Positions 8,169 to 54,481 of a stretch of DNA of 64,000 bases are shown here, piece by piece; the first letter of the stretch is position 1; the number at the start of each line of letters is the position of its first letter. Origin of the DNA: Acidimicrobiia bacterium (lineage in GTDB: Bacteria; Actinomycetota; Acidimicrobiia; Spongiisociales; UBA11373); contig JBBDMM010000006.1 in assembly GCA_040878325.1 (NCBI GenBank), positions 192,418 through 256,417 on the forward strand, in the 5' to 3' direction. A program made the translations under genes and the position numbers. The notes under the pieces were generated by a model. It was not told where the DNA came from and did not search any database. It saw only the letters and a list, made by a program, of their open reading frames with translations.

Positions 8169-9344
8169 GTGACGGTGGTGGTCGGCTTCCTGCTGGCGGC
8201 AGTGGCCCTGCTCACCGTAGGCCATCGCAAGGTCCGACCCCTGGTGGCGGTCGGGGCGCCGACGGTCGTGGCACTGATTTTCGGCGTAGTCACCACCGAT
8301 GAGGCGAGGGCCTCGATCGACCCGCTGATCGAACCGGTGCTCTTTCTTGTCTTTGCCGTTCCGCTGGCCATCCAACTCGATCGAGTTGGCTTCTTCGATG
8401 CGGCTGCGGGACGGGTGGCGGCGGGTCATCGATTGAGGCCATCGCTGTGGGTGTTCGCGGCGGCGGTGACCACTGTGTTCAACCTCGACGCCGCGATCGT
8501 GCTCCTCACGCCGCTGTACGTACGGATTGCCTACCGCCACGGACTCGATCCTCTGCTGACGGCGTTTCAGCCCGTTCTTCTGGCGGCGCTGGCATCCAGC
8601 GCTCTGCCGGTCTCGAACCTGACCAACCTCATCGTCGCCGCGGAGACCGGTGCGTCGTTCGGAGAGTTCCTGCTGTACCTCGGACTCCCATCCCTGGTGG
8701 CCACGGTGGTTGGGTGGATGATGTTTCGCCGCAGCCAACTCTCCGCGACGATTCCAGTGGTGCTCGAGGCCGAGCGCGGAGATCCGCGGCCCCTCCGAAT
8801 CGGCGGCTCGGTCGTCGTGTGGCTTCTCGTGGGATTCACTGCGGGCGACGTCCTGGGGATTCCCGCGTGGATGGTGGTTGCTTCGGCTCTGGTGCTGCTC
8901 TCGGTGGGGACGAGAACGCTGCCCGTCCGTGGAATCCCTATCGATGCCATCGGCGTCGTGCTCGGGTTGGGAGTACTCGCCGGCGCCGCTCCGGCGCACC
9001 TGGGGCTGGGGATTCTGCTCGGCGGCGAAGGTGCGATCGCTGAGGCCCGAGCGCTCGCGGTGGGGATCGTGGGGTCCGACATCGTCAACAACCTGCCGAT
9101 GCTCATCGCCGGGCTGCCTCACGTCGAAGGGGGCACCGCCTGGGCCCTCTTGCTCGGCACCAATCTGGGTCCGGTGTTGTGGCTGAGCGGCTCGTTGGCG
9201 GGCCTGCTCTGGCTCGACATCGTTCGCCGCCTCGGTCTGCAGGTGACCCCGCTCCAGTACGCCCGGGTGGGATGGAGGGTGGGGCTCCCGGCGATCGCCG
9301 CCGCAACCCCGGTGCTGCTGGTCATCTCGAGGCTGGCGGGTTGA
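8169..9344 (+). CDS. ArsB/NhaD-family (SLC13) permease
   Basis: NLDAAIVLLTP, LPVSNLTNL, VNNLP and GSLAGLLW motifs; GTG start at 8169 inferred. Confidence 0.8.
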   Translation: MTVVVGFLLAAVALLTVGHRKVRPLVAVGAPTVVALIFGVVTTDEARASIDPLIEPVLFLVFAVPLAIQLDRVGFFDAAAGRVAAGHRLRPSLWVFAAAVTTVFNLDAAIVLLTPLYVRIAYRHGLDPLLTAFQPVLLAALASSALPVSNLTNLIVAAETGASFGEFLLYLGLPSLVATVVGWMMFRRSQLSATIPVVLEAERGDPRPLRIGGSVVVWLLVGFTAGDVLGIPAWMVVASALVLLSVGTRTLPVRGIPIDAIGVVLGLGVLAGAAPAHLGLGILLGGEGAIAEARALAVGIVGSDIVNNLPMLIAGLPHVEGGTAWALLLGTNLGPVLWLSGSLAGLLWLDIVRRLGLQVTPLQYARVGWRVGLPAIAAATPVLLVISRLAG

Positions 9345-42429: not shown

Positions 42430-42700
42430 GATCGTGCTAGGCGGGGCGCTAGGGGTGCCTTGAACCCGAAATCCTCTTTACGCGGGGCCGAATCCCCGCC
42501 TGAGGGTGCTCGATGGTTGGGTCAGCGCCGGATACGTGGTGTTGAAGGCCGGGTCCTACGCGGCGGGAAACTGGTGAATCGGGTCAGATCCGGAAGGAAG
42601 CAGCCCTAAGCGGGTGACCCGGGTGCCGTAGGGCAGCCTGGCTGGAGCCGGCGACCCGGAACGCGCCGGTTGTCGACACTCGAAGGCGGGGCGCACGATC
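42430..42700 (+). ncRNA. ffs: signal recognition particle RNA, large (Alu-containing) type
   Basis: Helix-8 motif GGTCAGATCCGGAAGGAAGCAGCC; terminal stem GATCGTGC/GCACGATC spanning about 270 nt. Confidence 0.9.
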
Positions 42701-42722
42701 ATCGCGGCTGCAGCCGGAGGAA

Positions 42723-43394
42723 TCAGCCGGAGAGGTCCTTGTCCTCCATCTCCCACGCGTGATCCATGACGTGATACGCGCTGTGGCGGATCAAGAACGG
42801 TAGGTTCCAACTGCGCATCCTTCTGCCCTCGCCTGCGTTGTACGCATGCATCGCCTCGACGTAGTTGGTCCGGTGGTTGCGCAGCCCGGCGGGGGTGAGG
42901 GCCGCCTCTTCCGGTATTCGCAACCCCACCTGCTTGGCGAAGCTCTCACTCTCGTTGCGCACCGTGTGACGGATGATCCGGTCGCGATCACGGCCACCGC
43001 CGCGCGGGCCCTTCTGCAATTCCGCAGACACGGTCGCCGCCAACTTGTCGAAGTACGCCCAGCAGGCCTGCACCAACTTGATCTTGCGGTCCATCTCCCT
43101 GGCAGTCATCGGCTCGGTTTCGGTGGCGGAGGGGGAGAAGGAGATACCCCAGAAGTCGGTCGAGGGGGTGCCGATCTTGTCCTCGATCACCTCGAGGCGA
43201 GCGCCCTCCCGGGTGAACCGGTTCCCCATGCCGGCGGCCACGGCGACCGGGCGATAGCGCTCGCGGTAGGACGCGAGGAACTCGACCGCCATCTCGGGCG
43301 TCTTCGCCCCCCGGCTCCATCCCGGCCAATCGACGGCGAAGGCAACCGCCTTCTTGCCCTTGGGCCCACGCTCGAGAAAGATCCGGACCGGCAT
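42723..43394 (-). CDS. conserved hypothetical protein (DinB-like C-terminus)
   Basis: DWPGWSR, KGPRGGGRDRDRIIRH, HSAYHVMDHAWEMED. Confidence 0.75.
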   Translation of the reverse strand: MPVRIFLERGPKGKKAVAFAVDWPGWSRGAKTPEMAVEFLASYRERYRPVAVAAGMGNRFTREGARLEVIEDKIGTPSTDFWGISFSPSATETEPMTAREMDRKIKLVQACWAYFDKLAATVSAELQKGPRGGGRDRDRIIRHTVRNESESFAKQVGLRIPEEAALTPAGLRNHRTNYVEAMHAYNAGEGRRMRSWNLPFLIRHSAYHVMDHAWEMEDKDLSG

Positions 43395-43905
43395 GGGATC
43401 GATGATCGGGTCGGTCCGCGGCAGTTGTCAACCGTCGACCCCGCGAGGTTGCGTGCGTGCCAGCGAACCTGGAGGAAGGACTTCGACTTCCTGTTCGAGA
43501 GACCCTCCGAGCACTCGAGCCGTTGAGGACATCGCTGTCCCCTCCGCCAGCGTTCGTAAATGTCACCCGAGGCTTCAGGGCACAACGCAGGGCCTCGGCC
43601 AGCGTACGTAAATGTCACTAGAGCTTGAGACACACCGGTCGAGGCGAAGGGCTCCCGGGGAGGGGGGCGCTCAGGTTGGGTGGTCACTAGAAGCCTGGAC
43701 CCAGGGGCCACTCTCCAAGAACGCTACCCGGTCTGAGCGCCTCCCTCCGTCCATCTCCCCCTCCGGGTGAGGAAACAAGACCCTCGGCCAGTGTCGCGAG
43801 AGCACATGGGAGTCGACCTGGGCAGATGCCTGTAACTTGGAATGACACGCATGAAATCCAAGTTTCAGCACTGGAACTACCAATAACTGAGCTAGAGTCC
43901 AAGTT

Positions 43906-45096
43906 GTGTACGACCTGAGTAGTTCACCCATTGGGCGGACGGTACGCATCCGGGGTCACGACCATCGGTTTGACGAGGACTATGACCTCGACGCATACCT
44001 GCCCGACCCCCTGCCGGAGCGGGTGCCGATCGGCACCCAAACCTGGGTGGCGATCAGCGATGCAATGGCGGAGCTGGGCCGACTTGACGCGGCGTCTCCG
44101 CAAGTCCCAAACCCGACGCTCGTGTCGAAATTCACCACACGTCTCGAAGCCGTGGGAACATCAGCTCTTGAAGGTACGTACGCCGACCTCTCTGAGGTGT
44201 TTGCAGCGGAGGCGGCTGAGACCGAGATTCGCCCTGATGTGGTCCCGCAGCGTGTCCGAGAGGTGCTGAATTACGCGCGGGCCGCCGAGTTGGGCCATGC
44301 CGCTGTCCACGAGCAGCCAATCAGCCGGGGCCTCCTCTCCAATCTCCAGGCTGTCATCGTGCGAGGTACTGACTCGGACGGGACGGAAGCCGGAGCCATC
44401 AGAACGTCGCAGGTATTCATCGGCCCCCGGAATCGGCCGATCACCGAAGCCCGGTTCATCCCACCACCGCCTGGCGATCAGCTTGAGGCTCTCGTTGACG
44501 ACTGGATCTCGTGGATCGAAGGAGACAGGAGCGCATTGGTCCAAGTGCTGGCACGTGTGGCCGTAGCACATTACCAATTCGAGACAATCCACCCTTATCA
44601 CGACGGGAACGGCCGTGTCGGACGCCTCGCAGCGGCCCTCCAACTGCGCCGGTCGGGAGTGATCGGGACACCCGTCCTCGCAATCTCGCCGTGGCTCAAG
44701 GACCACGAGGATGCCTACAAGGACGGACTCCTCGCCGTGAGTGTGACTGGCGACTGGGAGCCGTGGGTCGCCTTCTTCGCCCAGGCGCTGATCGCTGCCA
44801 GTAGCCAAGCCCGAGCACGCATCGACCGCCTTGTCGAACTGAGAAAACAACTGTCCGAGACCGCCCGGACGCGGATTCCGCGGGGCCGACTTGCCGTGGA
44901 CATTGCCGACGACTTAATCGAGTACCCGATCCTTTCAGTAGCCGACGCGGAGGCGAGATACCAGAAGACCAATCAGGCCGCGCGCAACGCGATCGCCAAG
45001 CTCGTTGAGGTGGGGCTGCTTGAGGAGTACGGCAACGCGTCGTACGGCCGCCTGTATTGGAATCCGCGCGTGTTCAGCTCGGTGGGATCAACCTAG
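43906..45096 (+). CDS. Fic family protein (cassette)
   Basis: HYQFETIHPYHDGNGRVGR Fic motif; TSALEG inhibitory-type motif; C-terminal HTH-like segment. Confidence 0.92.
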   Translation: MYDLSSSPIGRTVRIRGHDHRFDEDYDLDAYLPDPLPERVPIGTQTWVAISDAMAELGRLDAASPQVPNPTLVSKFTTRLEAVGTSALEGTYADLSEVFAAEAAETEIRPDVVPQRVREVLNYARAAELGHAAVHEQPISRGLLSNLQAVIVRGTDSDGTEAGAIRTSQVFIGPRNRPITEARFIPPPPGDQLEALVDDWISWIEGDRSALVQVLARVAVAHYQFETIHPYHDGNGRVGRLAAALQLRRSGVIGTPVLAISPWLKDHEDAYKDGLLAVSVTGDWEPWVAFFAQALIAASSQARARIDRLVELRKQLSETARTRIPRGRLAVDIADDLIEYPILSVADAEARYQKTNQAARNAIAKLVEVGLLEEYGNASYGRLYWNPRVFSSVGST

Positions 45097-45171
45097 GGGT
45101 GTGATCCCACGCCCTCGGCCAGCGTACGTAAATGTCACCCGAGGTATGGGAGCCATGGCAAGGGGGCCCCT

Positions 45172-45891
45172 TCAGGGACGTATCTCAACCATCAGGTCAT
45201 GGGGAGCCACCTGGAAGGTGTCGTCGAGTCTGATGGCGATTGCCTCGGCTAGCTCGGAGGCGGTAGTGAACGACGATCCGGGGTAATCAACGACGAGGAG
45301 TTCGAGACGTTGCGTTCCGGGTTCGATGCTGAGGGTCAGCTGGGAGTATCCCAGTTCCTTCACGGTGTCGACCACAGCTCGTTTCAGAGTCTTCAAGTCC
45401 TCGTTGGAATACCTCATCCCCCCCTGCAGCTGAATACCGGAAACACCAGCACTACCCACCAACGAGACCACCTCAGGGGGCACTTCACCCTTGAAGTAGA
45501 TCGTGGCCGTGCCAGGATTGAACCGGTCCAGCGCCGCACCCGCGAATTGGGACAGCACGATGTCCTCGGGAATGCGATTGAGGAGATCGCCGAAGGCGAT
45601 CTGGTAATCCAGCTGCTGACGAACAACGTCAAACGGCATACCGAACTGCTTGGCAATTTGAGCGGCGTCATGGTCGAGAGCCTCGGACTCAGTCAGAGAC
45701 GGTTCGTCCTCGATGGGCGAGGGTCGAGTGACGGGTCCCGCATGGCCGGCGACAGGAGTCGTTGTCGGCGCGGGGAGCGTCGTCACAGCTTCTCGGGATG
45801 TGGTGGTGGTCGGTCCCGTAACTGGTGAGCTGCAGGCGCTGGCTAGAGCGATCACAGAGGCGACTAGAGCCCAGCGCGGAGACATCACCAA
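45172..45891 (-). CDS. putative lipoprotein (cassette)
   Basis: Lipobox LASAC followed by a Thr/Pro linker. Confidence 0.7.
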   Translation of the reverse strand: MVMSPRWALVASVIALASACSSPVTGPTTTTSREAVTTLPAPTTTPVAGHAGPVTRPSPIEDEPSLTESEALDHDAAQIAKQFGMPFDVVRQQLDYQIAFGDLLNRIPEDIVLSQFAGAALDRFNPGTATIYFKGEVPPEVVSLVGSAGVSGIQLQGGMRYSNEDLKTLKRAVVDTVKELGYSQLTLSIEPGTQRLELLVVDYPGSSFTTASELAEAIAIRLDDTFQVAPHDLMVEIRP

Positions 45892-46144
45892 ATCCTACAA
45901 GGCCGGTCGATCAACGAGCACGTGCGCTCCGAGCGCGGGGGTGGTTGTGGCCTCTTCCGCCGGACGGGCCACTCAAGTTCTTCGCGGCCTGGCCGGCGCA
46001 CGGGATCGTCGAGACCAGCGCCGAGATCGACGGGGCTGAGCTACGCCAACGTGCAGCCCAGGCCGAGGTCGTCTGGGGGCGCTGACCGTCCCTTCAGCCA
46101 GCGTCCGTAAATGTCACCCGAGGAGCTGGACAGCAGTCTCCCGA

Positions 46145-46366
46145 CTACCGCCAAAAACGATGGACCGCGAAGAACCCGAGCCACACCACGAACGCGGTCG
46201 CGATCGCGGAGGCGGGCGCGAACCCCCCTCCGCACGGGACGACGTAACCGAGGATCGAGTAGCACTCGGGCGGGAACGGGTCGATCCCCGACCATGGCAA
46301 CAGGAGCACCAGCACGACGAGCCCTGCTACAAGTGGAAAGATGATGCGGACCCTTTTCCCGGACAT
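46145..46366 (-). CDS. small two-TM protein (cassette)
   Basis: 73 aa, two TMs around a loop with two Cys; GGAGG RBS upstream; fills a 279-bp inter-repeat unit. Confidence 0.7.
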   Translation of the reverse strand: MSGKRVRIIFPLVAGLVVLVLLLPWSGIDPFPPECYSILGYVVPCGGGFAPASAIATAFVVWLGFFAVHRFWR

Positions 46367-46435
46367 CTGACACCTCCGCCGCACCTCACGGTAGGGGCGC
46401 CCCCTCGGCCAGCGTACGTAAATGTCATCAGAGGA

Positions 46436-46807
46436 CTAGGGCTGAACGAAGTATGCCAGTCCCACATCATGCCCACACCAGTCCCACAGGGTCTCCATGA
46501 GATCGGCGCTGGACCACGAGGAACCCTGACCCGCCAGTGATGCGTCGAGTTCCGCGATGACCGCGTCCAGCTTGGGCGCAACCGTGGCGCGGTCGCTTTC
46601 AATGAGACTCTCCGCCAGTGTCCCTACCTCGATCAGCATGGCGCGATACTTGGCCACCCCTGCGTCCCGAGTCAGATCGAGACCCTCCGCTGGCCGGAGA
46701 GCCGCCTGCGTATCAGCACAGAGGGAGCCTCGGGCCGTGTCTCCACCGCAGGCGTGAGCGCTGATTGCGATCCCCAAGAGCAGGACCCGGAGCTTCATGG
46801 CGGACAT
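46436..46807 (-). CDS. putative lipoprotein (cassette)
   Basis: Signal peptide ending SAHAC; stop codon 1 bp from the repeat. Confidence 0.65.
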   Translation of the reverse strand: MSAMKLRVLLLGIAISAHACGGDTARGSLCADTQAALRPAEGLDLTRDAGVAKYRAMLIEVGTLAESLIESDRATVAPKLDAVIAELDASLAGQGSSWSSADLMETLWDWCGHDVGLAYFVQP

Positions 46808-46909
46808 TGTGGTCCGACCTAGGAGCACTCCAACAGCACAGCGGATCTCCTCGCCTACAGGACCGCGATCAGATGTGCCTTCTCCACTGTCGGCCAGCGT
46901 TCGTAAATG

Positions 46910-48067
46910 TCATCCGAGCGGTGGTCGCACGATGGTCGTCACCCCGGGGATGGGGACCCTCTCGATGGCGTCGTTAGCGAGATCGATAACCATCGCTGGC
47001 AGGTGGACAGACCTGTCCCCAAACAGACGAACCAGGTTGACGACTATCTGGGTGTCCGATGCATGGATCTGCCTGACGTAGATCGGCTCCTCGGCAACCA
47101 GTAGTCGTCGCCGTTCTTTTCGGTTCTCGGTGTCGTAGATCACGAGCTCGGTCACCGTGTGTCGTGAGTCGGACTCGGTGTAGGCGATCAGGGGTGTTCC
47201 GGGGAGAGTGGTCACGGTGCCGAGGCAATTGCTCAGCCGTGGGTCGTCCCGACAGGGCGTACCTCGGGGAACTGGGTTCACCAAGAAGAACGGGTCGAGG
47301 AACCCGAATCCGGCATCCCAACCTTCAAGCCAGGCTTCCGCATCGTTTTCGATCGCCACTATGAACCGTCCGGGTCCCGGCGGCTCCTGCCACCCCACGC
47401 CGGTGATGTTCTCCTCGTTGGGGGGAGCGGGTCTCGGCCAGGGGAAGACATGTCCAAGCGGTGTAATCCAAAGCTCATCGGAGCCGGCAACGGGGTCCAC
47501 AACCAGCATGGGTGTGACCCCGAAACCAGGGTCCTCGGTGGCTGCGCCCCTCATCACCTCCACCGCGTAGAGAGTGAGGGTGCCCTCGGGCCCTTCGAGG
47601 CTGTCCCCGCCTGAGTCGAGCATCACGACCAGGGTTCCATCCGGCTGGAGCCGCCACATGGTGCCTCCGCCACCGCTCTGGCGGTCGGGCCACCGGTCCG
47701 GGAATAGATCCGGGTGGGGCGTCACGAAGACAATGGCCCCTGACTCGTCGGCGAAGGCGATCTCCACGGGAGAGGAGACAGGGCGGGAGACGACAGCCCC
47801 CTCCCGTACCACCCGAACACCGTGGATGCTGGAGACCAGGAAATCCCCGGGTTGAAGCGACCAGCCCTCCGACACCAGGGGGGTCTCGGGAAGCGATGAA
47901 GGTGGCGGCAGAGTGGCCGGCGGAACCGTCGTCGTGGCCGGCGGGTAGGTCGTCGCTCCGGCAGTCGTCGAGCTGACCAAAGGACCGGTGGTCGCCGATG
48001 GCCCCGAGGTGCACGCGCCGACCAGAACGACGGCGACGAACGTGGCGGCCATGCCTGAGCGCACCAT
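46910..48067 (-). CDS. putative lipoprotein (cassette)
   Basis: Lipobox LVGAC, Thr/Pro linker, beta-rich body; TGA stop lies inside the repeat. Confidence 0.75.
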   Translation of the reverse strand: MVRSGMAATFVAVVLVGACTSGPSATTGPLVSSTTAGATTYPPATTTVPPATLPPPSSLPETPLVSEGWSLQPGDFLVSSIHGVRVVREGAVVSRPVSSPVEIAFADESGAIVFVTPHPDLFPDRWPDRQSGGGGTMWRLQPDGTLVVMLDSGGDSLEGPEGTLTLYAVEVMRGAATEDPGFGVTPMLVVDPVAGSDELWITPLGHVFPWPRPAPPNEENITGVGWQEPPGPGRFIVAIENDAEAWLEGWDAGFGFLDPFFLVNPVPRGTPCRDDPRLSNCLGTVTTLPGTPLIAYTESDSRHTVTELVIYDTENRKERRRLLVAEEPIYVRQIHASDTQIVVNLVRLFGDRSVHLPAMVIDLANDAIERVPIPGVTTIVRPPLG

Positions 48068-48170
48068 CGAATCGTACGGCCGCTAGCGCGGCTCGTGGGC
48101 CGGCGACCAGGTAATAGAGACGCCCCCTCGGCCAGCGTGCGGGAATGTCATCCGAGGCGGCGAACTCACC

Positions 48171-48512
48171 TCAGTGAAGGTCGTTGAACCAGGTGCTCGG
48201 TGACGAGGAGTGATGTCCGATGAATCCGCTGGACGTCGGAACCGGTCCGCCCATCAAGTAGCCGGTCGAGGTCACCGTGAGTGCATAGAGGTTGTAGTTG
48301 AAGACCCGCGGGGCATCCTTCGGATCGATCCGCTCCGCAACGAGCGCACCTTGGTTGGGGTCGAAAGCCATCCGGGGGAAGAGCGACGTGTTCCTGGCCC
48401 ACGGCGGTCGACACGTCGTGGGAACGAGCATCGCCGCCGTCGAGGTGGGGATAGCCATTTCGGTGGATGTGTAGTTCGTCATCGTCCCGCTACGTCTGTG
48501 GGGCATGCCCAC
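48171..48512 (-). CDS. hypothetical protein (cassette)
   Basis: 113-aa ORF filling a 398-bp inter-repeat unit. Confidence 0.5.
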   Translation of the reverse strand: MGMPHRRSGTMTNYTSTEMAIPTSTAAMLVPTTCRPPWARNTSLFPRMAFDPNQGALVAERIDPKDAPRVFNYNLYALTVTSTGYLMGGPVPTSSGFIGHHSSSPSTWFNDLH

Positions 48513-48765
48513 TGTACGGCATGGTCGGCGCGCTGGTCATGGTGTCGATCGCCGCCCTCGGCCAGCGTACGTAAATGTCATCCGAGGCTTCAGGGCACAA
48601 CGCAGGGCCTCGGCCAGCGTCCGTAAATGTCACCCGACAAGATCAGGGCACTGGGCACACCCTCCGTCAGCGTTCGTTAGTGACACCTGACTTCGGGACA
48701 CGCCGCGGGCGTACCATGGTTGTTGCCCGTTGCGCCGACCCCTCGAAGGAGGCAGGCTGGCGGCC

Positions 48766-49335
48766 ATGATTGAAGAGGCGTTCTGCGCACTGATCCGCAA
48801 CCGATCCATCGAGAATCAGACGGCGATGGGTCGCGTGGGTCATGCGCCGGTAGCTCTGAGCCCCACGTTCTCGATCATTCGTCAAGAGCTGGACTCGATG
48901 ATTCGAGTCATCTACTTGCTCAATGTCGAAGACTTGGAGGTGCGGCGAGACCTAATGCGGATGACCGTTGAGGGGGAGACGTGGAGCGTGAGGACGACAC
49001 GGGGGCGGGCGCGGAGAGTCACAGATCGCGACATGGTGGCACTTGCCGACCGCCTGCAAGGGTGGAGTGAAATCGTTTACAGGTTCGGCTGCGCGTTCGT
49101 GCATCTGTCCAACCTTCACGGATTGGACCCCGACGATCCCCTGGATCAGCTTCCCCCAACAGAGCGAGGCGACGTGCTCCGCTATCTGCGGAACTACCAC
49201 GGCGGACCTCAGCGCGACACGCCTGACCTGGAGGAGCTGGGGCGTTACCTCCCGCTCGTACTCTCGAAGATCAGCAGCAACCTGATGCACTATGTTCGCG
49301 ATCTTGAGGCTTCGAGCGTGTGGATCGATGAGTGA
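48766..49335 (+). CDS. hypothetical protein (cassette)
   Basis: AAGGAGG upstream; RQELDSMIRVIYLL...YRFGCAFVHLS; ends 7 bp before a repeat. Confidence 0.75.
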   Translation: MIEEAFCALIRNRSIENQTAMGRVGHAPVALSPTFSIIRQELDSMIRVIYLLNVEDLEVRRDLMRMTVEGETWSVRTTRGRARRVTDRDMVALADRLQGWSEIVYRFGCAFVHLSNLHGLDPDDPLDQLPPTERGDVLRYLRNYHGGPQRDTPDLEELGRYLPLVLSKISSNLMHYVRDLEASSVWIDE

Positions 49336-49401
49336 ACTCCTGCCTGGGCCAGCGTTCGAAATGTCACCCGAGAGAAATCGGTCTAGGTGGCGACTGGTCC
49401 G

Positions 49402-49860
49402 TCAATTCCCGTCGCGCGCACTGATGGTGGGATCGCCGGGAGCAGGGGGGAGTTTGTATTCGATGCTGGACCAGAATCGGCGGGTCGCCGCAAGATTTTC
49501 GTACTCCAACCTCACCTCCGCGGTGCATCCGACCTCGACTCCGAGGCGGAAGCTGGTCGTCTCTTTCTCGGCTGGGTAAATGACATCCACGCTGGTTTCA
49601 CCGCCGCTTGATATGCGAGTCTCATTTGGGAGGCCGACGACGTTGTGCTGTCCGGTGATCCGACCAGGGGCCGGTCCTGAATTGGTGATGAAGACTTGCA
49701 TCACCGCCGTGGTTCCCGACCAGACGATGCTGTTGGCTGTAATCGCTATGTACGGGCGGTAGGAAGCGGTTGCGTTGGATGCGGACCGGCGCGACGCGAG
49801 AGCCGAGACAATGGCCGCCAGGGCCGAGAGACCAGCGAACGAGGCGAGAATCCAATCCAA
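49402..49860 (-). CDS. hypothetical N-terminally anchored protein
   Basis: TM followed by YRPYI and a beta-rich domain. Confidence 0.55.
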   Translation of the reverse strand: MDWILASFAGLSALAAIVSALASRRSASNATASYRPYIAITANSIVWSGTTAVMQVFITNSGPAPGRITGQHNVVGLPNETRISSGGETSVDVIYPAEKETTSFRLGVEVGCTAEVRLEYENLAATRRFWSSIEYKLPPAPGDPTISARDGN

Positions 49861-49952
49861 GAGAAGAAGGATACAGCGAATGACGATCCCGGCATCGGAA
49901 ACGTGAAGGCGGCAGCGGTAGGATTCGCCTACAACGAGACGGAGGACCGTGC

Positions 49953-50204
49953 GTGTTGAAGGGCGTGATGCGAAAGGGCCTCTTCAACCGGTTGCTGGCT
50001 CAGGGTCGGGTCTCTAATCCGATGATCGCGCTAGCCATCGCGGAAGCCGTGTATCCATCACGCCGAGACATGTTCAAGGACACGATAGTTTCGCCCGCTG
50101 TCGCAGGCCAGGTCGTTGAAGGTTTCCTCGATCTTGGGGCTTTCACATTTGAGGAAATGATGACGAGGTTGTGGGGACCTGGCGTGAGTCCTCTGGAGCT
50201 GTAA
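49953..50204 (+). CDS. hypothetical protein
   Basis: 83 aa; GGAGG upstream; TAATG overlap with the next ORF. Confidence 0.45.
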   Translation: MLKGVMRKGLFNRLLAQGRVSNPMIALAIAEAVYPSRRDMFKDTIVSPAVAGQVVEGFLDLGAFTFEEMMTRLWGPGVSPLEL

Positions 50205-50467
50205 TGCGTTTCATGGGTGCCGGCATTCAGTGGTGGATCGGAGTGATCCTGGCGGGCCTGGCGGCTTGGCAGTTCAAGGCACGGGAACTCGACGCGTGGA
50301 TGTGGGTGTCTGTCGCGGTAGCGGTCGTAGGCTTCTGGTCGGCTGGGATCGCCTCGAACTACGCCCTAAGAGGGAACCCGTTGGATGTCCCGAACGGGAC
50401 CACTCGCCTAAACATCGGGAGCGCTCTGGCTGGTGCAGCATTGCTCATCGGAGCCGTCGTCGCCTGA
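50204..50467 (+). CDS. small three-TM membrane protein
   Basis: 87-aa hydrophobic ORF. Confidence 0.55.
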   Translation: MRFMGAGIQWWIGVILAGLAAWQFKARELDAWMWVSVAVAVVGFWSAGIASNYALRGNPLDVPNGTTRLNIGSALAGAALLIGAVVA

Positions 50468-50743
50468 ATCGGTCATCGGGTCCACTTGCCCTTCTTGACT
50501 TGAGTATGCAACGAAACTCGTCACGGCGTTGTCGTGGGTTTGGTGCCCCGGTTCGCCCCTCGGGTGACCGCGTTCGGAGGTTAGGGAGGAACGGAGGCGG
50601 TGGCCGAGGCTTCTTGAATGACAACTGTGTGTTTCTAGGTTTGGGTGGGGGCTATGCTTCGCGGGCCGGTATGTGATGTCCGCGGCAAAGACCGCCAATG
50701 TTGAGACCGCCGGTTTCCCAGGTGTCTTCGTGGGGGCGGTCTT

Positions 50744-51466
50744 ATGGCAGCCGGTTGGTTCCTATCTTTGTATCCCGATGCTGGTGAGGCTGGCGGGTCG
50801 TTCCGCGGGCTGAACAGACGCCGCCCCGGGTCCGGTGGCGGGTGGGCCACGGAGCCGGATGAGGGTCGGGCGGTGGAGGAAGCGGCTCGTCGGGCGCGGG
50901 GGAAGGTCCGCCGCTATTGCGCGGCGAATGGTCTGAATCGGTTTGGGACGCTGACCTATGCGGGTGAGGGTGAGCATGACCCCCGGGCGGTGCGGGCCGA
51001 TATCTCCCGGTTCTTTCGTTCGCTCCGTCGTGGTCTCGATGAGGCGTTTCCGTATCTGTGGGTGCCGGAGTTGCACAAGTCGGGGCATGGCTGGCATGTG
51101 CATTTCGCGGTAGGACGGTTCGTTGCCCGCGGTCTGATCGAGTCCTCGTGGGGCCGGGGGTTCGTCTTCATCAAGTTGATCCAAGGTGTCCCGGTGGGGT
51201 CGGGGGTGCGGGGCGAGGCCCGGGTGGCGGCCCGGTATCTGTCGAAGTATCTGGGCAAGGAGATGGGGTCGGGGGCGGGTGGCCTGAATAGGTATGACGT
51301 GGCGCAGGGGTTCCAACCCCAGGTTGAGCAGATTTGGGCGCCGACAGTGGAGGAGGCGATCGGGGCGGCGTCGGATCGGATGGGTGGGCCACCGGACTAC
51401 ATCTGGCGGTCGGAGGGCACCGAGGGGTGGCGGGGCCCTTCGGCGGTGTGGTTGCAATGGCGCTGA
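50744..51466 (+). CDS. HUH-superfamily rolling-circle replication initiator (Rep)
   Basis: Motif I GTLTY, motif II WHVHFAV, motif III YLSKYLGK. Confidence 0.85.
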   Translation: MAAGWFLSLYPDAGEAGGSFRGLNRRRPGSGGGWATEPDEGRAVEEAARRARGKVRRYCAANGLNRFGTLTYAGEGEHDPRAVRADISRFFRSLRRGLDEAFPYLWVPELHKSGHGWHVHFAVGRFVARGLIESSWGRGFVFIKLIQGVPVGSGVRGEARVAARYLSKYLGKEMGSGAGGLNRYDVAQGFQPQVEQIWAPTVEEAIGAASDRMGGPPDYIWRSEGTEGWRGPSAVWLQWR

Positions 51467-51592
51467 GCCACGATCCCGAGGTGGTGGCTTGGGTGGTTGA
51501 GTCCACGGCGGCTCAGGGTGTTCCGGTGAGGGTGGAGGAGCCGGCGGCGGTGGAGCGGGTGGTGACGTTGCTGGGGGAGGGCCGGGAGCCTG

Positions 51593-53031
<1,439 letters not shown>

Positions 53032-53100
53032 CAGGGCACATTAACGCACCGTCCCCTCGGCCACGGCGATCACATCAGGGTGGAGTTGCTCGATAATCGG

Positions 53101-53190
53101 CGGAGAGGGAGGGATTTGAACCCTCGAAGGGGTTTAACACCCCTTACTCGCTTAGCAGGCGAGCGCCTTCGACCACTCGGCCACCTCTCC
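53101..53190 (-). tRNA. tRNA-Ser(GCT)
   Basis: CTCGC-CT-GCT-AA-GCGAG, long variable arm. Confidence 0.95.
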
Positions 53191-53232
53191 ATGCTCGGGA
53201 AGTCCCGAGCCGTGACATTGTGACACCTCGCG

Positions 53233-53319
53233 CGGAGGGGGTGGGATTCGAACCCACGGAGCCCCGGAGGGCTCAGCAGTTTTCAAGACTGCCGCCTTCG
53301 TCCGCTCGGCCACCCCTCC
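53233..53319 (-). tRNA. tRNA-Ser(TGA)
   Basis: GCAGT-CT-TGA-AA-ACTGC, long variable arm. Confidence 0.93.
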
Positions 53320-53387
53320 AGATCAGCTCCGGCTCCGGCCCCAGCCCCTGCCAGAGGGAACAAGGACCAGCCGTGCGAACCAATGAG

Positions 53388-53476
53388 CGGAGGGGGTGGG
53401 ATTTGAACCCACGGGACCGGAAACCCGGCCCAACAGTTTTCGAGACTGCCGCCTTCGTCCGCTCGGCCACCCCTCC
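53388..53476 (-). tRNA. tRNA-Ser(CGA)
   Basis: GCAGT-CT-CGA-AA-ACTGT, long variable arm. Confidence 0.93.
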
Positions 53477-53497
53477 AGATCAGCTCCGGCTCCGGCC

Positions 53498-53597
53498 NNN
53501 NNNNNNNNNNNNNNNNNNNNNNNNNNNNNNNNNNNNNNNNNNNNNNNNNNNNNNNNNNNNNNNNNNNNNNNNNNNNNNNNNNNNNNNNNNNNNNNNN
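53498..53597. other. assembly gap (100 N)
   Basis: Run of N. Confidence 1.
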
Positions 53598-53685
53598 CCA
53601 GCCCCTGCCAGAGGGAACAAGGACCAGCCGTGCGACTCCAACTGTCGGTTGCAATTGTGGCATCTACCGAGGGGGTAATCGCCAC

Positions 53686-54144
53686 TCACCGTCGTGAACT
53701 GAAGAACTCCTCCAGGAGTGCCGCCGAATCCTCGCCCAGGACGCCGGCGACGAGTTCGACCCGGTGATTGAGGCGGGCGTCCTGGGGGATGTTGTACAGG
53801 CTCCAGGCACCGCCGGCCCGCAGGTCGGCTGCCCCGTAGACGATCCGCTCCACCCGCGCCCACACCGCCGCCATGGCGCACATCGGGCAGGGTTCGAGGG
53901 TCACCACCAGCGTGTGCCCGGTGAGTCGCCAGTCGCCGGCGGCCCGCGACGCCGCCGAAAGAACCAGCATCTCGGCGTGGGCGGAGGCATCACCCAACTC
54001 CTCCCGACGATTGTGATCGGCAGCCACCACCGCCCCGGAGCCTTCGAGCAGCACCGCCCCGATGGGGACATCTCCGTGCTGTAAAGCGAGCCGCGCTTCC
54101 CCGAGTGCATGGCGCATGGGGGTGGAATAGTTGGGCAGTGTCAT
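53686..54144 (-). CDS. tadA: tRNA adenosine(34) deaminase
   Basis: DVPIGAV, AHAEM, TLEPCPMCA. Confidence 0.9.
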   Translation of the reverse strand: MTLPNYSTPMRHALGEARLALQHGDVPIGAVLLEGSGAVVAADHNRREELGDASAHAEMLVLSAASRAAGDWRLTGHTLVVTLEPCPMCAMAAVWARVERIVYGAADLRAGGAWSLYNIPQDARLNHRVELVAGVLGEDSAALLEEFFSSRR

Positions 54145-54390
54145 TGCCCAGGCTCCAAGGAGAGGGTCTCCTCTGAGCGCCCCCTCCGTCTCGGCCTGCG
54201 GCCGATCCACCTCCCCCTTCGGGGGAGGACGCGGAGGGAGAGGGATTTGAACCCTTCTCCGCGGTGTCGAGAGGGTCGGGGATCCTCGTTCGCCAGGTCC
54301 ATGCGGAGCCGGGGAGTGTAGGAGGCGACGCGAGAAGGGGCCGGTTTCGCCGCCGGTAAGGCGGCGAAGACCGGGGAGCGGTGGTTTTCG

Positions 54391-54481
54391 CGGAGGGAGA
54401 GGGATTTGAACCCTCGTGGCGGCTTTCGCCGCCAACACGCTTTCCAGGCGTGCGCACTCGGCCGGACTATGCGATCCCTCC
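54391..54481 (-). tRNA. tRNA-Ser(GGA)
   Basis: CACGC-CT-GGA-AA-GCGTG, long variable arm. Confidence 0.95.

Follow-up and report, generated by a model that had tools for sequence, protein, structure and literature searches.

The start codon of a large serine recombinase (LSR) gene in an Acidimicrobiia bacterium lies within a short string that recurs kilobases away, in an array of small gene units, and this raises the question of what the shared string is: a promoter, a repeat of the host chromosome, or one arm of a recombination site at which a mobile element ends. We addressed it in a window of 64,000 nt (NCBI GenBank assembly GCA_040878325.1, contig JBBDMM010000006.1, positions 192,418 to 256,417 of the forward strand), whose coordinates are used below unless another contig is named. 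The genome, here G000, comprises 2.2 Mb in 18 contigs with 66% G+C, and the window lies in contig C6.

The string that a preliminary description of this DNA had flagged, 39 nt long, sits at exactly 53025–53063 by sequence check and spans the recombinase ATG as described there: CAT at 53029–53031, read on the other strand, is the ATG with which the minus-strand recombinase ORF begins. The likeness to the array is real, with the matching strings found at 43569–43601 and 48584–48616, and the flank said to be shared with the array copy at 46092, ACCGTCCCTTCAGCCA, was recovered at 46086–46101. In the whole 2.2-Mb genome, GAGGCWTCAGGGCACA has five copies, three in units without genes that we call mini-cassettes and two at recombinase gene starts. 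Allowing up to one mismatch, GAGGCTTCAGGGCACA also has five matches genome-wide on both strands (two mini-cassettes of this array, one in the array on contig C10 and two recombinase starts), and at two mismatches only one more, unrelated place in the whole genome is added. The match between the recombinase start and the mini-cassettes is beyond chance.

The array itself consists of direct repeats. A repeat search found 11 direct copies of the approximately 32-nt repeat CCCTCGGCCAGCGTNCGTAAATGTCACCCGAGG between 43541 and 49375, with CCCCTCGGCC as the site core, and the core has nine matches in the window where 0.02 would be expected. Ten direct repeats on the plus strand (43541–48692; repeat search, flanks and nhmmer) stand between cassettes that for the most part carry a single gene; there is a degenerate copy near 43783–43814, and the array-type site nearest the recombinase, also on the plus strand, occupies 49343–49374, with its centre TG at 49345–49346 and a right arm 1 nt short. 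The cassette units measure 0.05–1.5 kb and mostly hold one ORF, the longest, high-GC3 ORFs lying on both strands; a Fic-domain protein (43906–45096, Pfam) is among the cargo. Four more clusters of the repeat bring the genome to five arrays in total, each in one orientation, and the 32-mer has 24 matches genome-wide at up to 8 substitutions.

The island that holds this array has sharp edges. On the left, the 3′ part of an SRP RNA gene lies on the plus strand at 42500–42698 (Rfam RF01854, 97 bits, truncated where the stretch searched begins); homology with the congener G001 ends at 42753 and variable DNA begins at 42754, 55 nt past the SRP RNA gene, with this genome, G001 and contigs of two other sequencing runs all diverging at 42753. 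The string TCCATCTCC occurs at the divergence point (42745–42753) and again about 1 kb on (about 43750), flanking DNA that is absent from G001. On the right, the island ends beside a tRNA-Ser(GCT) gene (53099–53190, minus strand; ARAGORN and Rfam RF00005) that is intact and has no overlap with the site described below. This is the first of four tRNA-Ser genes in a row (GCT, TGA, CGA and GGA; 53099–54481), a row in which a stretch of 71 nt is also duplicated (96% identical) and 38 nt recur without change at 53341–53378 and 53598–53635.

Between the last array repeat (49343) and the recombinase, the DNA is filled by unnamed ORFs and a gene for a rolling-circle-type replication initiator on the plus strand (Rep; 50744–51466; Pfam PF23343 REP_ORF2-G2P, E 8.7e-17). 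The LSR gene occupies 51593–53031 on the minus strand, with Pfam Resolvase and Recombinase matches, and its frame is broken by a run of about 60 G (minus strand) at 52198–52259. Contigs of the probable source run end on either side of this run and none bridges 52198–52259, so the poly-G run is probably an assembly or sequencing artefact. The genome holds an intact counterpart on contig C10, P0001, of 468 aa, in which PF00239, PF07508 and PF13408 (Resolvase, Recombinase and Zn_ribbon_recom) all score above their cut-offs; it stands behind an array cluster in the same geometry as the window copy, and its element holds the same Rep gene (PF23343). P0001 shares 31–33% identity with actinobacterial phage serine integrases, and its best solved relative is entry 9iu2, annotated 'Integrase'. 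The window and C10 (136520–137923) recombinases are mosaic, with 96% identity over the first 261 residues and 59% over the zinc-ribbon and coiled-coil remainder.

With the array-type site at 49343–49374 as its probable left end, the Rep-plus-recombinase element would measure about 3.7 kb (about 49347–53056). Profile searches with Pfam and NCBIfam recognized no directionality factor among its unnamed ORFs and no FtsK-like or Tra-like transfer gene among the ORFs of 49.3–53.1 kb. Tyrosine recombinases were absent from the 22 ORFs of 40–53 kb searched with Pfam and the 14 ORFs searched with NCBIfam; the only recombinase among the scanned ORFs is the serine recombinase. Within the element, the stretch 50491–50650, 160 nt upstream of the Rep gene, is 98% identical to DNA beside a recombinase gene of another genus (G005, contig C20), far above the 60% identity of the two recombinase proteins, and a 35-nt block with TTGACT upstream of Rep is common to the C10 copy too; possible roles for the stretch include an origin of replication and a promoter, or it may be a module that was exchanged recently.

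Where the element ends on the right can be read from three independent contexts. The C6 and C10 copies are homologous over window positions 50652–53083: identity is 100% from GCAGCC to CCCCTCGGC, the next 20 nt contain five differences and the DNA beyond is unrelated, the C10 flank being the 3′ flank of an M3 peptidase gene. (Within that peptidase ORF, at 8355–8441 of locus L009 on C10, ARAGORN calls an 87-nt tRNA-Arg(GCG), probably a false positive.) In G001, which has no recombinase match and carries different cassettes, homology with the window returns at 53053, reading CCCTCGGCCGCGGCGATCACCTCAGGG and then the tRNA. Finally, the recombinase start and its arm recur on the metagenome contig L080, where GGCCACGGCGACTACACC and a third, unrelated flank follow. 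Together these three contexts place the junction between element and target inside CCCCTCGGC(C), at 53053–53062, and outside the tRNA; a boundary within the tRNA, the finding that would have spoken against the preliminary reading, was not seen in G001, the relative that has no recombinase.

The preliminary description had read this end as a hybrid attL/attR-type junction, and the three contexts, together with the typing of the half-sites set out below, support that interpretation and suggest the attR type. It had also let the similarity stop abruptly after CCTCGGCCA. This is so for the likeness to the array repeats, whereas the site continues: positions 53064–53080 are conserved in the C10 paralogue, in G001 and in one metagenome contig, and form a second, shorter kind of arm rather than flanking DNA past the end of the site. 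The distance to the tRNA, given earlier as 37 bp, needs correction, as 35 nt lie between 53063 and the ARAGORN tRNA end at 53099. Counted from the end of the shorter arm at 53080, the tRNA-Ser(GCT) is 18 nt away, with the arm downstream of the tRNA. This arm is kept in G001 without a recombinase and partly kept in C10 and L080; the target-side arm beside the recombinase is of the short type in four contexts.

The two arms of the site can be typed by a spacing rule. According to the passages on half-sites in Rutherford et al. 2013 (PMC3783163), the motif bound by the zinc-ribbon domain lies 5 bp nearer the centre in attB than in attP half-sites, a minimal attB is about 10 bp shorter than an attP, and attL and attR, the hybrid sites, do not react unless a directionality factor is present. 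At the recombinase, dyad symmetry predicts a crossover dinucleotide TC at 53057–53058 (plus strand), which falls within the 9–10 nt CCCCTCGGC(C) common to every context compared. To its left lies an element-side (P-type) arm (53029–53056, minus strand), 100% identical in the C10 copy, that covers the recombinase start codon (53031–53029) and a likely −10 box, TAATGT (53043–53038); to its right lies the target-side, chromosomal (B′-type) arm GGCCACGGCGATCACATCAGGG (53059–53080, plus strand), with GATCACA at +10 to +16. Read outward from the TC centre, the array right arm is GGCCA-GCGTACGT-AAATGTCAC and the recombinase-side arm, on the complementary strand, is GGGGA-CGGTGCGT-TAATGTGCC; 15 of 22 positions are identical by eye, and in both, counting from TC, five core nucleotides lead into an 8-nt block, after which WAATGT begins at +15. 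In both copies (C6 and C10), positions +15 to +21 of the recombinase-side arm read AATGTGC, and AATGTCA stands at +15 in 35 of 38 array right arms, a count that is partly by construction, the sites having been found with a model of that arm. The tRNA-side arm, with GATCACA at +10, is of the B type.

The left arms of the array sites offered a separate test, run without the tRNA-side arm on sites from this genome and the loci of five relatives (nhmmer: 48 site matches at E ≤1, of which the 38 with E ≤0.02 were used and 10 weaker ones dropped). Over the 38 distinct left arms, the fit to AATGTCA peaks at +10 only, with a mean of 2.34 of 7 positions against a null of 1.50 (sd 0.18, z 4.8); in 2000 random sets of 38 genomic 40-mers, the maximum over offsets never went above 2.29. 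At least four of the seven positions agree at +10 in 11 of 38 left arms, compared with 4, 2, 0, 2 and 2 of 38 at +8, +9, +11, +12 and +15, respectively. The signal at +10 is modest, carried by about 11 of 38 left arms in sites that come from related genomes, and we take it as good support, not proof. By the rule of PMC3783163, the array repeats would be attL-type sites, with a B-type left arm and a P′-type right arm, and the P-type arm (+15) and the B-type tRNA-side arm (+10) would make the site at the recombinase a hybrid of the attR type.

The same geometry recurs around another core. One recombinase subfamily of the relative G034 has a different, nearly perfect core, CACCC-TG-GGGTG, with the motif block at the same distance. 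Placing the centre of the window site at GG/CC or GAGG/CTTC was tried and rejected, as it gave unequal arm spacing and 12 of 26 symmetric positions versus 16 of 26 with TC (by eye); the exact crossover is accordingly given here as a predicted one, at TC 53057–53058. The sites have the format of LSR attachment sites: about 40–50 bp, imperfect dyad symmetry around a central non-palindromic dinucleotide, and a distal motif 5 bp nearer the centre in the B-type than in the P-type arms. A matched attL/attR pair of an LSR is expected to share its central dinucleotide. Both ends of the C10 element read TC; in the window element, the left site reads TG (49345–49346) and the right site TC (53057–53058), and because these differ the window pair may be mutated or not a pair.

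The position of the P-type arm bears on expression of the recombinase. TAATGT ends 6 nt ahead of the recombinase ATG and would fit the −10 box of a leaderless transcript; scanning this region for promoter consensus sequences gave none of the sigma-70 type on the minus strand. Recombination would change the sequence upstream of the gene, as the preliminary description proposed, because the −35 position lies at or beyond the predicted crossover, and the gene may be regulated through binding to the arm or through this exchange of upstream DNA.

The strings that first drew attention to the array belong to its smallest units. Twice in the array, two repeats stand 52 nt apart, with a 20-nt spacer and flanks that resemble the recombinase start. 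Mini-cassette 1 (43569–43601, plus strand) comprises the right-arm end of one site, a copy of the recombinase P arm that is 5 nt shorter, and the core of the next site; mini-cassette 2 (48584–48616, plus strand) is 95% identical to it over 79 nt. The alignment with the recombinase arm has gaps of 2 and 3 nt, hence the 5-nt-shorter arm, and the GTTGTGC block stands at +9, not +15, which is B-type spacing. It is more likely that the mini-cassettes derive from the recombinase arm than the reverse.

Relatives show how widely the sites are spread and how their contents change. The site motif occurs in 39 of 41 genomes of the family, with two matches in all for a reversed control. Recombinase matches at E ≤1e-20 were found in 18 of the 61 relatives searched, this genome included, and within the family in 14 of 36 genomes, a count that takes in the unpublished genome G040, on which nothing stated here at the level of sequence depends. 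Most array-bearing family genomes carry no detectable recombinase. Many recombinase matches lie at contig ends, and gaps in metagenome-assembled genomes may account for part of the missing ones. G034 has 14 recombinase matches and thus at least 14 copies, full or partial, in two subfamilies with different site cores; most of them are 140–540 nt away from the end of a contig, which is how copies would lie if assembly stopped at attachment sites.

The layout at the recombinase start is equally recurrent. Upstream of 14 of 18 related recombinase genes, a GTGA-containing outer arm is followed by the core, a (G/C)TAATGT-like block and, after a further 5–9 nt, the start codon. The upstream region is different in the remaining four genes, which are members of a subfamily with about 45% identity to P0001. 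The arm layout recurs in several genera at 56–76% recombinase protein identity. At eight of nine loci, both of this genome included, the nearest array site lies 2–3.6 kb past the 3′ end of the recombinase gene in the opposite orientation, the exception being G005 C20, where the sites have the other orientation.

Between G000 and G001, cassettes at the same locus have been exchanged within conserved surroundings: the flanks are 90–95% identical, and the island shares the mini-cassette only. The G001 cassettes encode a methyltransferase, a Gp49/HigB-like protein with an HTH partner (a toxin–antitoxin-like pair; locus L045, 10667–11427) and a Ser/Thr-rich protein. Cassettes also differ in their location. 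The end of one cassette with its site (45941–46123) is 98% identical to G001 contig C8, where the cassette has a complete ORF and stands behind a flank orthologous to that of the C16 array of this genome; the same cassette therefore occupies different arrays in the two congeners, and its 5′ part has been replaced in this genome. Two further candidates for cassette movement were rejected. Alignment did not confirm that a 190-nt difference between G000 (43597–43787) and G001 is bounded by site cores, and a paralogue of 45159–45712 on C11 is not bounded by sites. The latter pair (C11:1194–1747) is 90% identical, and the contig depth of the source run is about doubled there.

We also looked for products of recombination. 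Neither the contigs of four runs, which break at repeats, nor one scan of JGI metagenome contigs yielded an excised circle, an empty site or any other product of recombination. Over 42500–53400, the joints between sites in the four-run contigs have at most 36 nt on the shorter side, and several joints come from other arrays of the genome (the loose end at 46401, for example, is the C16 flank), so that these contigs are uninformative on circles and empty sites. The exact scan of JGI contigs with 28 nt of the recombinase arm returned one locus, in the integrated form and with the short target arm, and no junction of P arm with P′ arm. When free attB-like sites were sought with a loose regular expression, the 63 matches were consistent with chance, and a core search within both elements (C6 and C10) found no convincing internal attB; one candidate, an inverted core with AATGACA at +10 (about 50585–50625), is not conserved in the C10 copy.

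We consider it likely that 53029–53080 is the right-hand, attR-type junction of an approximately 3.7-kb element with Rep and LSR genes, and that the array is a series of attL-type sites left by earlier insertions. On this account, the flagged 39 nt would be the element's own P-type arm plus the site core, the array repeats would be attL-type junctions from earlier insertions with the same site family, and the island from the SRP RNA gene to tRNA-Ser would be a cassette stack built by serine-recombinase chemistry. The 52-bp mini-cassettes would be relics of recombinase-bearing elements of which two arms are left, the left arm 5 nt shorter and thus with B-type spacing. The Rep-plus-recombinase unit would excise as a circle whose attP consists of the recombinase arm and the P′ arm, replicate by rolling circle and integrate at sites resembling attB, of which the one next to tRNA-Ser is an example. 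Where a single attR follows a series of attL sites, excision could proceed via any attL and remove a variable set of cassettes, and insertions at a regenerated attB would lengthen the array. A recombinase bound to its own arm would cover the promoter and start codon of its gene, and each recombination would alter the DNA at the −35 position. The architecture and boundaries of the sites, their distribution over the family and the turnover of cassettes between relatives are observed; that this recombinase cuts these sites, and the order in which the insertions would have taken place, are inferred.

Canonical LSRs do not integrate into attR or attL, so that many attL-type sites in a row beside only one attR imply additional steps, for which nested insertion and excision or relaxed site choice are candidates. 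Cassette ends of the B type could arise by nested insertion followed by excision, by relaxed partner choice or by conversion of a P into a B arm through loss of 5 bp. PMC3783163 reports relaxed partner choice for CcrAB and A118. The mismatch of TG on the left with TC on the right of the window element, and the fact that no recombination product was seen, count against the simple story. A broader possibility, which we hold tentatively and regard as rather doubtful, is that the system is a family-wide serine-recombinase counterpart of the integron, in which single-gene cassettes with P′ and B arms move one by one among several arrays of the chromosome, the Rep–recombinase unit is the autonomous cassette, a 5-bp loss from the P arm restores an attB and the promoter is rebuilt at each event. 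The shortened P arm would then turn a dead attR into a usable attB, and the array would grow at its tRNA-Ser side.

Three other explanations start from the same repeats. The array repeats could be intergenic repeats of the host with another role, such as protein binding or signalling a transcript end, which the element merely targets. Their presence in 39 of 41 family genomes, with the recombinase in only 14 of 36, and the three of five arrays of this genome that have no recombinase nearby speak for such host repeats, but we think this unlikely. In both element copies, a strongly conserved right arm lies on the element side of the left junction, and that arm is therefore element-borne rather than target-borne; the target-side arm next to the recombinase is of the short type in four contexts; and the repeats bound units that differ between congeners. 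Six stretches covering sites, folded as DNA, do no better than shuffled versions of themselves, with z between −0.41 and +0.61, and the sites match no Rfam family.

A role in transcription alone, with the shared sequence a promoter or operator module (a copied leaderless recombinase promoter, or promoters of the array) and no recombination arm, strikes us as quite improbable. The mini-cassette copy is without 2 nt of the TTAA block and without the start codon (CTT for CAT), and would therefore be a poor copy of a promoter; the block keeps exactly the P-type spacing to the core in two subfamilies whose cores differ; and the scan for sigma-70-type promoters was negative on this strand. These observations outweigh, in our reading, the placement of TAATGT 6 nt ahead of the ATG, with a TAAT-like block so placed at 14 of 18 related loci, and a precedent in that parts of the integron literature describe gene-less promoter cassettes. 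We give very little credence to the view that ordinary homologous recombination or duplication, acting on two copies of a decaying element, produced the likeness incidentally, with no present function and a meaningless site structure. The recombinase copies are indeed mosaic (96% over the first 261 residues and 59% over the rest), and one cassette has, for part of its length, a paralogue with 90% identity elsewhere, without sites at its ends. Duplication alone, however, would not lead one to expect the statistic for the 5-bp offset or the same placement of the motif in the G034 subfamily with the core CACCC-TG-GGGTG, and the layout recurs in several genera at 56–76% protein identity.

The closest likeness is to the serine integrases of phages and other elements (of the A118/LI, Bxb1 and phiC31 type), with a three-domain LSR and an attachment site that abuts the 5′ end of the recombinase gene. 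For an integrase gene to abut its own attachment site is ordinary. Here too the arms are imperfect inverted repeats with the motif 5 bp nearer the centre in the B type, as described in PMC3783163, and at the level of sequence the locus would qualify as a serine-integrase element. Unlike those systems, it is a 3.7-kb Rep-plus-recombinase unit rather than a phage, its P arm overlaps the start codon, and it ends an array of attL-type sites with single-gene cassettes, an arrangement that a canonical integrase, being strictly directional, would not leave behind after integrating once.

Composite SCC and SCCmec islands of staphylococci (CcrAB, CcrC) provide a precedent for such stacking: a serine recombinase, tandem elements between direct repeats derived from attachment sites, some of them without a recombinase, and a single chromosomal insertion site that is still usable after insertion. 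CcrAB recombines non-canonical pairs, attP with attP, according to the part of PMC3783163 that treats it. The recombinase here is nonetheless not of the Ccr type, scoring 38.6, 30.9 and 20.2 bits with the NCBIfam CcrB, CcrA and CcrC models against cut-offs of 900, 700 and 900, respectively. Its targets lie beside tRNA-Ser and an M3 peptidase gene rather than at the rlmH 3′ end, its units measure 0.05–1.5 kb and are mostly single genes where SCC elements reach tens of kilobases, and five arrays share one 2.2-Mb genome, with arrays across the whole family.

Integrons and CALINs resemble the locus in having mostly single-gene cassettes between repeats of one family, arrays without a recombinase, a distinct terminal site beside the recombinase and contents that vary between close relatives; as in chromosomal integrons, the cargo includes toxin–antitoxin-like and Fic genes. 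Their recombinase, IntI, which acts with attI, is a tyrosine recombinase, unlike the serine recombinase here. The sites here have no single-strand fold of the attC kind; ORFs lie on both strands, whereas integron cassettes are co-oriented, mostly promoterless and served by one promoter; and the recombinase gene here is part of the last cassette and points away from the array. Actinomycete integrative elements (AICEs) of the pSAM2 type are similar as small integrative elements of high-GC Gram-positive bacteria, with a rolling-circle Rep (here PF23343), a recombinase and a place beside a tRNA gene. pSAM2 uses a tyrosine integrase. The element described here further differs in that no FtsK-like transfer gene was recognized and its site lies outside the tRNA.

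Serine integrases are regarded as strictly one-site, one-way enzymes of phages and large elements, and the stacking of gene cassettes as a speciality of the tyrosine recombinases of integrons. A literature search at the level of titles and abstracts found no description of serine-recombinase cassette arrays. Here, a family of sites of the serine-recombinase type punctuates arrays of small cassettes at several loci of this genome and across nearly all genomes of an uncultured Acidimicrobiia family of sediment and soil, with a grammar of P-type and B-type half-sites that can be read straight from the sequence. The interest lies in this grammar, which links the recombinase to the family-wide arrays, in the relic arms that are 5 nt shorter, and in how a directional enzyme would build such a stack. 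If the enzyme acts on these sites, they would form a natural attP/attB/attL/attR series, including a 5-bp conversion of P into B, on which to study partner choice by serine integrases, in a set of sites and enzyme small enough to be ready for a laboratory host; and the arrays would represent a second, independent route to integron-like gene banks.
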